Shown here: positions 6,001 to 9,000 of the stretch, in pieces
How positions within the stretch are numbered: the stretch's first letter is position 1
How the letters are laid out: the number at the start of each line of letters is the position of its first letter
Assembly: GCA_035429705.1 (NCBI GenBank)
Contig: DAOMFH010000001.1
Span: forward strand, 1 to 39,559
DNA length: 39,559 bases
Source of the DNA: Actinomycetota bacterium
Lineage (GTDB): Bacteria; Actinomycetota; Actinomycetes; S36-B12; UBA10799
Reading direction: 5' to 3'
Program-made: the position numbers

Positions 6001-9000
6001 GTCCTCGCTGCACGCCATGTTCGGCGGCTACGCCGTGGCGATCGTGTTCAACAGCGGCAACGCCCCCTTCGTCTCACCACTTCGGTTGCGCGGCATCCCG
6101 GTCGCCGTGCATGTGGACGGACTCGAGGCCGAGCGCGCCAAGTGGGAGGGTATGGGCGCCAAGTACTACACGTGGGCCGAACGCGCCGCGGTGAGGCGGG
6201 CCGACGCGGTCATAGCCGACGCGCGGGCGATCGTCGACTACGTGCGGGAGCGGTACGGCCGGGAGTCGGTGTACCTGCCTTACGGCGCGCACCTGGTCGA
6301 TCCCCCGACCCCCCGGCTGACCGAAGTGGGCCTGCACGCCGACGGCTACCACCTGAGCGTGGCCCGGTTCGAGCCGGAGAACCACGTGCTGGAGATCGTC
6401 CGCGGCTACCGCCGCAGTGCCGCCCGGCTTCCCCTCGTCGTGGTCGGCGCGGCCAGCTACTCGCACGACTACGCCGAGGCCGTGGCCCGGGCAGCGGCCG
6501 GCGACGACCGCATCCGCCTGCTCGGCTCCGTGTGGGACCAAGTGCTGCTCGACCAGTTGTACGCCGGCTCGCGCAGCCTGCTGCACGGGCACTCGGTGGG
6601 GGGGACAAATCCGTCCCTGCTGCGGGCCATGGGCGCGGGCACCCGGATCACCGCCTACGACTGCGTGTTCAACCGGGAGGTCACCGGTGGGCACGCACGC
6701 TGGTTCACCGACGAGGCAGAGGTGGCCCGGGCGGTGGAACTCGACGAGTCCGCCCCGGACGAGCGCGGCAAGCCCGCCCGGCAGCGCGCTGAGACCGCCT
6801 ACCGTTGGGACGACGTGATCGACGGCTACGCGGACCTCTGCTACAGGCTGGCGCGATGATCGGCGCACTGGCGGTGGCAGGGACACTGGTGTTCAGCGGC
6901 GTCGGCCCCGGCCTGCCGATCCCGGCCGAGGCGTTCGGCATGCATGTCGCAGACCTCGCCCAGACCGCCCCGGCCGACGCCGGACTGACCGCTGTGCGGC
7001 TGTGGGACTCCGGCGTGCGCTGGGACCAGATCGAGACCTCGCGGGACGTCTACGAGTGGTCCGCGCTGGACACCGCGGTTGACAACGCCCGGGCCGCCGG
7101 TGCCACCGACATCCTGTACGTGCTGGGGTCCACGCCGCGCTGGGCAGCACGCAACCCCGGCGCACCCGGCCTGTACGGACCCGGGACGACCTCGCTGCCG
7201 GCCGATCCCGAGGACTACCTGGACTTCACCCGGGAGGTCGCCCGGCGCTACCAGGGCCGGATCACCGGCTACCAGATCTGGAACGAGGCGAATACCCGCA
7301 GCTTCTACGAAGGCGACTGGACCGCGCTGGCACGACTGACCCGTCGCGCCTACGACGCGGTCAAGATCACCGATCCGGCGGCGTACGTGGTGTCGGCGTC
7401 CAGCACGGTGATCCCGGGGGGGCTGTTCCAGACCGAGAGCTTCTTCGTGCGCTACGCGCGCGCGTTGCACCAGATGGGCGACCCGGTCGACGCCATGGCG
7501 GTTCACCTCTACCCGGTGGACACCAGTTCGGGCCCGCAGGCGCGAACTCGCAGCATCCGGGCTGCCCAACGGGTGCTGAACCGGGTGGGGATCAACCGGC
7601 CCCTGTGGGACACCGAGGTCAACTACGGCGACCGGCGGCCCGGCCTGCCCACCGTGGTTCCCGATCCGGACACGGCCGCCGCGTACGTCGCCCGTACCTA
7701 CCTGGACGCGGCCACTATGGGCATCGCGCGGACCTACTGGTACGGCTGGGACCTGGACGTGCTGGGCATCGATCTGACCGACAGCACCGGGATCACCACG
7801 GCGGGGCGGGCGTTCCTCACCGTGCGGGACTGGCTGGTCGGGGCGCGAATCGCCGGGTGTCAGCAGGTCGGCGGAGTGCGGCGCTGCCACTTCACCAGTC
7901 CAGGCGGAGATCCGTTCACCGTGGCGTGGACGCCAGACGGCACCGCTACCCTCGATGTGGCTGGGCTGGAGGTGTGCCGCCTGGACGGGCGTTGCACCAC
8001 TGACGAGCAGGATCTGCTGGTGGGCATCCAGCCGGTGCTGCTGCGCGCACGGGATGGGTGACGGGACATCTAGACTCGACGACAGTGGCGAGCCGGAAGG
8101 TGGACTCAGTGTCAAACGCGGCAGCATCGTCGCCGGTCAGCGGGCTAGTGACCTCGATGCGCCCCCGGCAGTGGGTCAAGAACCTGCTGGTGATAGCGGT
8201 CCCCCTCGCATCCGGGCGGCTGCCCGAACCCCATGTGATCGCCAAGACCGCGTTGGCGTTCGCAGCGCTCTGCGCAGCCTCGGCGGCCGTGTACCTGACG
8301 AACGACATACTCGACCGTGCCGCTGACGCCCGGCACCCGGTGAAGCGCAACCGGCCGATCGCTGCGGGGGTCGTGCCGATCCCCATGGCAGCCGGTGCGG
8401 CCCTGGTGCTGGCTTTGGGCGCGGTCCTGATACCCGGACTGCTCGGCAGCCAGGATCTGTCACTGCTGGTCCTCGCATACCTCGTGCTGCAGGCCTTCTA
8501 CGTGTCGTGGGCGAAGCACCAACCGGTGCTCGACCTGGCCTGCGTGGCGGGCGGCTTCGTTTTGCGCGCCGTGGCAGGCGGCGTGGCCAGCGGCATTCCG
8601 GTGAGCACCTGGTTCCTCACCGTCACTGCTGCCTCGGCCATGTTCGTCGTTTCCGGCAAGCGGTACAGCGAGTTGGTCACGCACGGTCACGAAACGGGTA
8701 CCCGGCCGGGCCTGCGCGAGTACTCCGAGGGCTACCTGAGATTCGTCTGGGGCGTCTCGGTCGGAATCGCGGTGGTCTTCTACGGGCTTTGGGCCGCGGA
8801 ACTGGGCAATGGCGGCAGCGCCATGTGGGCTCGGCTCTCCGTCATCCCCTTCGTGCTGCTGCTGCTGCGCTACGCCCGGGACATAGACTCCGGGTCGGCC
8901 GAGGCGCCGGAGGACCTGGTGTGGGGAGACCGTGTCCTTCAGGCGCTCGGGGTGATCTGGGCAGGCATGTTCATGCTGCAGGTTGTCGTCTGACGCCGAA

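Follow-up and report, generated by a model that had tools for sequence, protein, structure and literature searches.

A decaprenyl-phosphate phosphoribosyltransferase gene in a wall-polysaccharide cluster of an uncultured actinobacterium and the location of its likely partners dprE1 and dprE2

The window analysed here, meaning the whole stretch of 39,559 bp (contig DAOMFH010000001.1 of assembly GCA_035429705.1), comes from an uncultured Actinomycetota of a non-mycolate lineage and carries at 8058..8993 (+) an open reading frame (ORF) for a decaprenyl-phosphate phosphoribosyltransferase of the Rv3806c/UbiA type (DPPR synthase, hereafter DPPRS). The first-pass annotation had regarded the presence of this enzyme without the epimerase pair DprE1 and DprE2 as remarkable. 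We found canonical, adjacent dprE1 and dprE2 genes on another contig of the same assembly, and with these partners elsewhere in the genome the finding becomes an ordinary one. We therefore consider it probable that the DPPRS functions in a standard pathway to polyprenyl-phospho-D-arabinofuranose (DPA), a pathway that is most likely complete and whose DprE enzymes are encoded outside the window.

Identification of the DPPR synthase gene

The deduced DPPRS has 311 amino acids with about 8-9 hydrophobic segments. Its gene begins with a GTG codon and has a 4-nt overlap with the stop of the hydrolase gene before it. The Pfam UbiA model matched the protein with 55.8 bits, and the NCBIfam equivalog NF008978 covered residues 16-310 of the 311 with 341.9 bits against a cut-off of 207. 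The solved chain of M. tuberculosis Rv3806c (PDB 8j8j) was matched over residues 24-303 with an E-value of 2.1e-67.

The residues of Rv3806c that bind phosphoribosyl pyrophosphate (PRPP) and Mg are R22, K28, Y70, N73, D77, K87, R90, Q135, Y138, K143 and Y157 (PMC10994848). Their counterparts in the window protein, in the same order, were R35, K41, Y79, N82, D86, K96, R99, Q145, Y148, K153 and F167. Ten of the 11 positions were thus identical, and the only change, Tyr157 to Phe, is a natural variant in some mycobacteria (PMC10994848). Conservation extended to the Mg/pyrophosphate site (Asn73 and Asp77, here N82 and D86) as well as to the cluster of basic residues with a tyrosine (Arg22, Lys87, Arg90, Lys143 and Tyr138, here R35, K96, R99, K153 and Y148). 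The phosphoribose-binding residues K28, Y70, Q135 and Y157 are not conserved in UbiA prenyltransferases (PMC10994848), and all four were present in the window protein as K41, Y79, Q145 and F167, the last as Phe.

Judged from its sequence, the ORF is a genuine Rv3806c-type DPPR synthase, and the motif-for-motif match to the mycobacterial enzyme that had been noted earlier was borne out by the family model, the structure and the active-site residues. Membership of the UbiA superfamily would also allow an aromatic prenyltransferase that transfers no phosphoribose. However, models of aromatic prenyltransferases and heme O synthase reached only 15-35 bits, compared to 342 bits for the DPPRS model, and the four phosphoribose-specific positions absent from UbiA prenyltransferases were kept, with Phe in place of Tyr157; we give this alternative practically no chance.

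Location of dprE1 and dprE2

When the long ORFs were all scanned against Pfam and NCBIfam, there was no DprE1 (VAO-type oxidase), no classical short-chain dehydrogenase/reductase (SDR) of the DprE2 type and no PAP2 phosphatase in the 39.5-kb window. Whole-genome family searches for the three likewise gave no match on this contig (C1 in our numbering), and tblastn of the window with the organism's own DprE1 and DprE2 gave best E-values of 0.34 and 0.63, respectively. The earlier observation that all three are missing from the window was thus correct. The window is the longest of the 502 contigs of a metagenome-assembled genome (MAG) of 2.71 Mb, with 77% completeness and 3% estimated contamination, and absence from one contig of such a fragmented MAG is not readable as absence from the organism.

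Searching the whole genome located dprE1 at C332:761-2215, with 540 bits to NF053785 (cut-off 500) and a full-length match to M. tuberculosis DprE1 (PDB 4p8c; E-value 5.6e-107). The gene for DprE2, a classical SDR, was found at C332:2212-2973 with 270.2 bits to NF053786 (cut-off 250), overlapping the dprE1 stop by 4 nt. Of the partners sought in this way DprE1 and DprE2 were recovered; as to the phosphatase, the searches gave two generic PAP2 proteins. Of the outcomes that the first-pass annotation had offered, it is the one with the partners lying elsewhere that agrees with this result.

Contig C332 is 2,974 bp long. It opens with the N-terminal part of alaS, read from the opposite strand, and breaks off right at the dprE2 stop. 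Over its first 55 nt it overlaps with the end of contig C71, where the rest of alaS, present once in the assembly, is encoded. The GC content of C332 is 68.2%, compared to a genome mean of 68.8 +/- 1.5%, and its DprE1 is 76-83% identical to orthologs of the same genus, the same range as that of the window proteins against the same genomes. Because of the alaS end overlap, the matching GC content and this range of identity, we take C332 as part of the source genome; in principle, it could belong to a co-binned sister strain of the genus.

At the position of Cys387 of the M. tuberculosis enzyme, the residue bound covalently by benzothiazinones, the DprE1 from C332 carries Ala (GWTLALD versus GWNICVD in the 4p8c alignment).

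Distribution and gene order in relatives

The closest DPPRS loci were from uncultured Actinomycetota MAGs, one of them labelled Candidatus Nanopelagicales. DPPRS was present in 23 and DprE1, above its cut-off, in 18 of the 31 related genomes, the source genome being counted in both. In most families of the order, DPPRS, dprE1 and dprE2 form one operon. Members of the genus share the left core of the cluster (DUF4012, GH39, GH39, GT4, PslG, DPPRS, primer), and in locus L004 the order was PslG-DPPRS-DprE1-DprE2-PGT within the conserved core shared with the window. No PAP2 gene was present among the ORFs between dprE2 and the primer gene of L004. Genome G003 (locus L005) had dprE1 only, between DPPRS and the primer gene. 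The dprE1-dprE2 pair was found between dapB-p126 and rmlC in three genomes (G005, G011 and G013) and a few kb away in G010. DprE1 was apparently absent from G008, where a dprE2 fragment was located at a contig edge.

At least four chromosomal sites of dprE1-dprE2 were counted within the genus: inside the glycan cluster, at dapB/rmlC, near rmlD and next to alaS (contigs C332 and C119; loci L004, L098, L099, L103 and L119). This variety of sites suggests repeated relocation of the pair.

Among 80 actinobacterial DPPRS loci, 40 had dprE1-dprE2 within 10 kb of DPPRS, and the other 40 did not; the latter include Nocardia, Rhodococcus and most Pseudonocardia. Separation of DPPRS from the DprE genes is thus common among actinobacterial loci, and the lack of dprE1 and dprE2 beside DPPRS in the window is a matter of gene order only. 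Going by gene numbering, Rv3806c of M. tuberculosis presumably does not adjoin dprE1/dprE2 (Rv3790/Rv3791) either. A literature search returned nothing usable on how DPPRS/DprE are distributed outside Mycobacteriales or on the function of Rv3784/Rv3785.

Proposed DPA pathway

The following order of steps is modelled on Mycobacterium, Corynebacterium and P. aeruginosa; it is inferred, as are the lipid length, the acceptor, the phosphatase and the choice of GT-C transferase that uses the donor. As its sequence predicts, DPPRS would make polyprenyl-linked ribose 5-phosphate from PRPP. Removal of the 5-phosphate would follow, for which one of the two generic PAP2 enzymes, or else another phosphatase, is the probable catalyst; DprE1 and DprE2 encoded on C332 would then epimerise C2 to yield DPA. 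A GtrA-like protein may help to present this donor outside the membrane, where GT-C transferases would add arabinofuranose (Araf) to a cell-wall glycan; candidates are an AftD-type protein encoded on contig C12 and possibly the protein encoded at 10952-13318. The rhamnose-type backbone of the glycan would be made and exported through the ABC transporter by the rest of the window cluster.

The two PAP2 proteins of the genome (C136:3873-4442 and C141:338-1075) matched generic undecaprenyl-diphosphatase models below the cut-offs, and neither gene is linked to pathway genes. Loss of the PAP2/Rv3807c homolog in P. aeruginosa merely lowered glycosylation (bioRxiv 10.1101/2020.04.19.049825). A 799-aa polytopic protein near the C141 PAP2 gene was considered as a GT-C transferase and rejected, as it is a NorB/COX1 oxidase.

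A small membrane protein of the GtrA family, to which Rv3789 and PsPA7_6247 belong, is encoded in the window at 35420..35779 (+; PF04138, 56.7 bits). This protein might serve as a flippase or scaffold for a lipid-linked sugar.

The AftD-family GT-C protein, which includes a CBM_AftD domain, is encoded at C12:5818-10275 (-; 779-782 bits) in the neighbourhood polA...GT4-methyltransferase-aftD-acyltransferase. Three GT87 and three PMT_2 proteins are also present in the genome. The second candidate, a polytopic membrane protein with about 13 transmembrane segments (855-aa ORF; called gene 10952..13318, +), had no Pfam, NCBIfam or PDB sequence match and no more than five homologs among 5.8 billion database proteins. 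Its predicted model, with a pLDDT of 64.5, was assigned the GT-C fold by structural search: the top 20 hits of a wide VIA-align search were all GT-C-fold proteins (Z-scores of 14.7 for ArnT, 11.7 for AftB, 11.2 for AftA and 10.5 for AftD), and Foldseek gave weak GT-C matches only (E-values 0.03-0.1). Going by this model, the protein probably represents a new GT-C family and is a candidate extracytoplasmic transferase for a polyprenyl-phosphate sugar donor. A role as obligatory DPA transferase was rejected, since homologs occurred in 4 of 14 genomes of the genus compared to 11 with DPPRS (source counted).

Several points weigh against a complete DPA pathway in this organism. The MAG is incomplete, partly contaminated and split into many contigs, and C332 is short and might in principle stem from a second strain of the genus that was present alongside. 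The dapB-p126-[dprE1-dprE2]-rmlC site of three sister genomes corresponds to the organism's own contig C119, where the pair is missing, and a dprE pair adjacent to alaS was not seen in the sister genomes examined. No ortholog specific to Rv3807c could be named in the genome, and the Emb-type arabinosyltransferase family (PF04602) had no match in it, incomplete as it is. Furthermore, two genomes of the genus (G001 and G012) encode AftD although neither DPPRS nor DprE1 was detected in them, and AftD is thus not necessarily tied to a DPA donor.

The completeness and contamination values, the empty dapB-rmlC site on C119 and the abrupt end of the short C332 at the dprE2 stop would also suit a different explanation, in which C332 is a binning or assembly contaminant and the organism has no DprE1 or DprE2, their place being taken by a GMC/SDR gene cassette located at 35795-39559 in the window or by nothing. 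Against this stand the 55-nt overlap that ties C332 to C71 through the single-copy alaS, and the agreement of its GC content and of its divergence from sister genomes with the rest of the MAG. DprE1 and DprE2 are, moreover, present in most members of the genus that carry DPPRS, and the cassette occurs together with them in other lineages. We regard contamination as very improbable.

A further alternative is that the donor stays polyprenyl-phospho-ribofuranose and that a GT-C transferase adds ribofuranose (Ribf) directly, as in the three-component systems of Gram-negative O-antigens. Such systems have been reported in Gram-positive bacteria too (PMC11127046), and GtrA-like and GT-C-fold proteins are encoded in the cluster. 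However, canonical DprE1 and DprE2 are encoded in the genome and share one operon with DPPRS in relatives. In addition, no HAD domain was matched in the DPPRS by the Pfam and NCBIfam scans; the protein is 311 aa with UbiA as its only domain, whereas the Citrobacter-type enzyme has a HAD phosphoribose-phosphatase domain. The ribofuranose route is therefore unlikely as a substitute for the DPA pathway, and no observation calls for it, although the two could coexist.

Structure and distribution of the GMC/SDR cassette

The GMC/SDR operon to which the first-pass annotation had pointed as a possible replacement of the DprE enzymes consists of four genes on the minus strand (35795-39559), in the order small ORF-GMC-SDR_A-SDR_B, with gtrA convergent to SDR_B. 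The small ORF (39254..39559, -; about 100 aa) is cut by the contig end, lies upstream of the GMC gene overlapping its start, and had no Pfam match. The GMC-family FAD oxidoreductase (37827..39260, -; about 477 aa; PF00732 and PF05199) truly starts near 39260, where homology to sister genomes stops. SDR_A (36820..37830, -) is an extended SDR of the NAD-dependent epimerase/dehydratase family (PF01370, 129.2 bits). The last gene, SDR_B (35795..36820, -), encodes an extended SDR of the 3-beta-HSD/epimerase family with orthologs in distant loci. An ORF of 608 aa at 35795-37621 that resembles a fused SDR was discarded as an artefact, its N-terminal 267 codons being an Arg/Pro/Gly-rich out-of-frame read over SDR_A.

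Within its family the cassette is confined to the source genus, and homologs of 45-51% identity are widespread beyond it. Seven distant loci were sampled (L121-L127), belonging to two Nocardioides species, Crossiella and four MAG or metagenome contigs. All seven kept the four-gene order small ORF-GMC-SDR-SDR, with identities to the window proteins of 47-51% for GMC, 44-53% for SDR_A and 54-64% for SDR_B. A small ORF of 95-120 aa occupied the same position in each of the seven, and no sequence similarity was detected among the small ORFs of the cassettes. The neighbouring GT-C genes were AftD in five loci, two Emb-type genes in one and a weak PMT_2-type GT-C in one. A DPPRS-type UbiA was encoded in three of the seven. 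DprE1 was found in or just beyond the locus in three, two of which also had DprE2; the genome-level DprE1 check covered the loci other than L121, L122 and L124 (Nocardioides, Crossiella). In the two Nocardioides species, the cassette and DPPRS lie together between polA and aftD, and a polA...aftD neighbourhood is also present on the organism's own C12.

In one genome of the same genus (G002; locus L112, C232 2128-7282), a divergent DPPRS directly precedes GMC-SDR_A-SDR_B, again with a convergent gtrA whose product is 73% identical to the window GtrA. This DPPRS is 39% identical to that of the window, scored 303 bits with NF008978 and kept 10 of the 11 PRPP-site residues. Neither dprE1 nor dprE2 was found in G002, which is 83% complete. 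No GMC homolog was located within 10 kb of DPPRS in any of the 80 actinobacterial DPPRS loci, and GMC as a general neighbour of DPPRS was accordingly rejected.

Possible role of the GMC/SDR cassette

The idea that the GMC/SDR enzymes stand in for DprE1 and DprE2 did not hold, because the cassette coexists with DprE1/DprE2 here and in three distant genomes. On the analogy of the C. youngae SDR described below, the cassette may plausibly tailor the lipid-linked pentose of this pathway. The cassette might oxidise and re-reduce the lipid-linked pentose made by DPPRS, giving a second pentofuranose donor beside that of DprE1/DprE2; we put this forward tentatively, as a possibility that falls short of being probable. 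The product, equally tentatively, might be a C3 epimer such as xylofuranose (Xylf) or lyxofuranose (Lyxf). The G002 locus, where the divergent DPPRS adjoins the cassette and no dprE1/dprE2 was found, is consistent with such a role. So are the seven distant loci, which keep the gene order beside GT-C genes, with DPPRS in three and DprE1 nearby in three, and the shared polA...aftD neighbourhood in Nocardioides. A precedent exists in Citrobacter youngae O2, where a single SDR turns undecaprenyl-phosphate-linked Ribf into the Xylf form (PMC11127046).

Other observations argue against it. The complete lack of nearby GMC homologs in the 80 DPPRS loci does not favour a link with DPPRS, and the substrate could instead be supplied by the GT2 encoded beside gtrA in the window. 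Alcohols of many kinds serve as substrates of GMC enzymes and extended SDRs, and co-occurrence with DPPRS within the genus is not independent evidence, as both lie in one cluster. In its wider form, the proposal would make the cassette a conserved, uncharacterised redox module that remodels the DPPRS product and has gone unrecognised as a part of AftD/Emb-linked wall-glycan loci across Actinomycetota, which we likewise hold to be possible but somewhat doubtful.

Other genes of the window

Going by the Pfam and NCBIfam matches of its long ORFs, the window has the gene set of a wall-polysaccharide cluster. It comprises genes for a DUF4012 protein, three PslG/GH39-like hydrolases, GT4, DPPRS, a WbaP-type primer and the polytopic protein of no known family, followed by a DegT aminotransferase, several GT2/GT4 proteins, Wzm/Wzt, RmlA, RmlB and RmlD, and the GtrA protein with one GT2 beside it, the GMC flavoprotein and the two extended SDRs. 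The rmlC gene missing from this rml set was found at C119:3237-3824 (-), next to dapB.

Directly upstream of DPPRS, the third of the three PslG paralogs (6805..8061, +) encodes a PslG-like secreted glycoside hydrolase (E-value 3.3e-10 to PslG in the PDB). It is a conserved neighbour, and the order GT4-PslG-DPPRS was kept in sister genomes. Downstream lies the gene for the priming enzyme (9116..10549, +), a polyprenyl-phosphate glycosyl-1-phosphate transferase of the WbaP/EPS type (PF02397, 213.8 bits; TIGR03025, 378.5 bits). Some sister genomes have dprE1-dprE2 inserted between DPPRS and this primer gene (synteny in L004, L005 and L101).

Gene order in four sister genomes indicates that the window continues on its right side into FhaA-FhaB-...-RodA-PbpA-PknB, a conserved cell-division locus that corresponds to the organism's own contig C72. 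A second DPPRS past the window end, upstream of GMC, was rejected, as the sister genomes have this locus there.

In sister clusters a DUF2142 membrane protein is encoded near a GacI/PpgS-like GT2 (L097 6486-8012; L004 18041-19459), and the window has none at that place. The set of membrane transferases of the cluster differs between species.

Significance and comparison with known systems

Among uncultured Actinomycetota outside the mycolata, a full set of DPPRS, DprE1 and DprE2, frequently joined by an AftD-type transferase, is widespread and lies within rhamnose-type wall-polysaccharide clusters. Lipid-linked D-arabinofuranose chemistry is therefore probably not special to the mycolata. The DPPRS itself belongs to a known family, and the potential for novelty is limited to the conserved GMC cassette. 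If the cassette does act on a lipid-linked pentose, it would represent a second, unstudied tailoring route beside a pathway that is a drug target in tuberculosis. The Nocardioides species that carry it are cultured organisms.

The DPA pathway of M. tuberculosis and C. glutamicum consists of the UbiA protein Rv3806c, Rv3807c, DprE1 (Rv3790), DprE2 (Rv3791), the GtrA-like Rv3789 and AftA-D/Emb. Like it, the source genome encodes an orthologous DPPRS with a conserved PRPP site, DprE1 and DprE2 proteins that score as equivalogs, an AftD-family GT-C and a GtrA-family protein. In contrast, the host is an uncultured non-mycolate; no Emb-type match was obtained with PF04602, AftA and AftB families lying outside the search; and only generic PAP2 proteins were present, none identifiable as an Rv3807c ortholog. 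The DPPRS gene is also set in a rhamnose-type, ABC-exported cluster with a WbaP-type primer and three PslG-like hydrolases, and the DprE1 differs from that of M. tuberculosis at the Cys387 position, as described above.

The D-Araf system for pilin of P. aeruginosa Pa5196/PA7 (PsPA7_6245-6249 and TfpW) resembles the present one in having homologs of Rv3806c, DprE1, DprE2 and the GtrA-like protein outside the mycolata. Its phosphatase homolog is dispensable, and the GT-C that consumes the donor is highly divergent from Emb (bioRxiv 10.1101/2020.04.19.049825). Its biosynthetic genes form one cluster and pilin is its acceptor, whereas the source organism has the genes scattered and presumably modifies a wall polysaccharide.

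The three-component pentofuranose system of Citrobacter youngae O1/O2 (Kelly et al., PNAS 2024, PMC11127046) follows the same logic of a polyprenyl-phosphoribose synthase, a flippase and a GT-C; auxiliary SDR epimerases diversify the pentose, and the glycan depends on an ABC transporter (PMC11127046). The synthase of C. youngae, however, carries a fused HAD phosphatase domain, which the source DPPRS lacks, and works with a MATE flippase and GT136. Here the proteins found instead were a member of the GtrA family and one with a GT-C fold outside the known families, in searches that did not extend to MATE or GT136, and the GMC flavoprotein with its small ORF has no counterpart in C. youngae.

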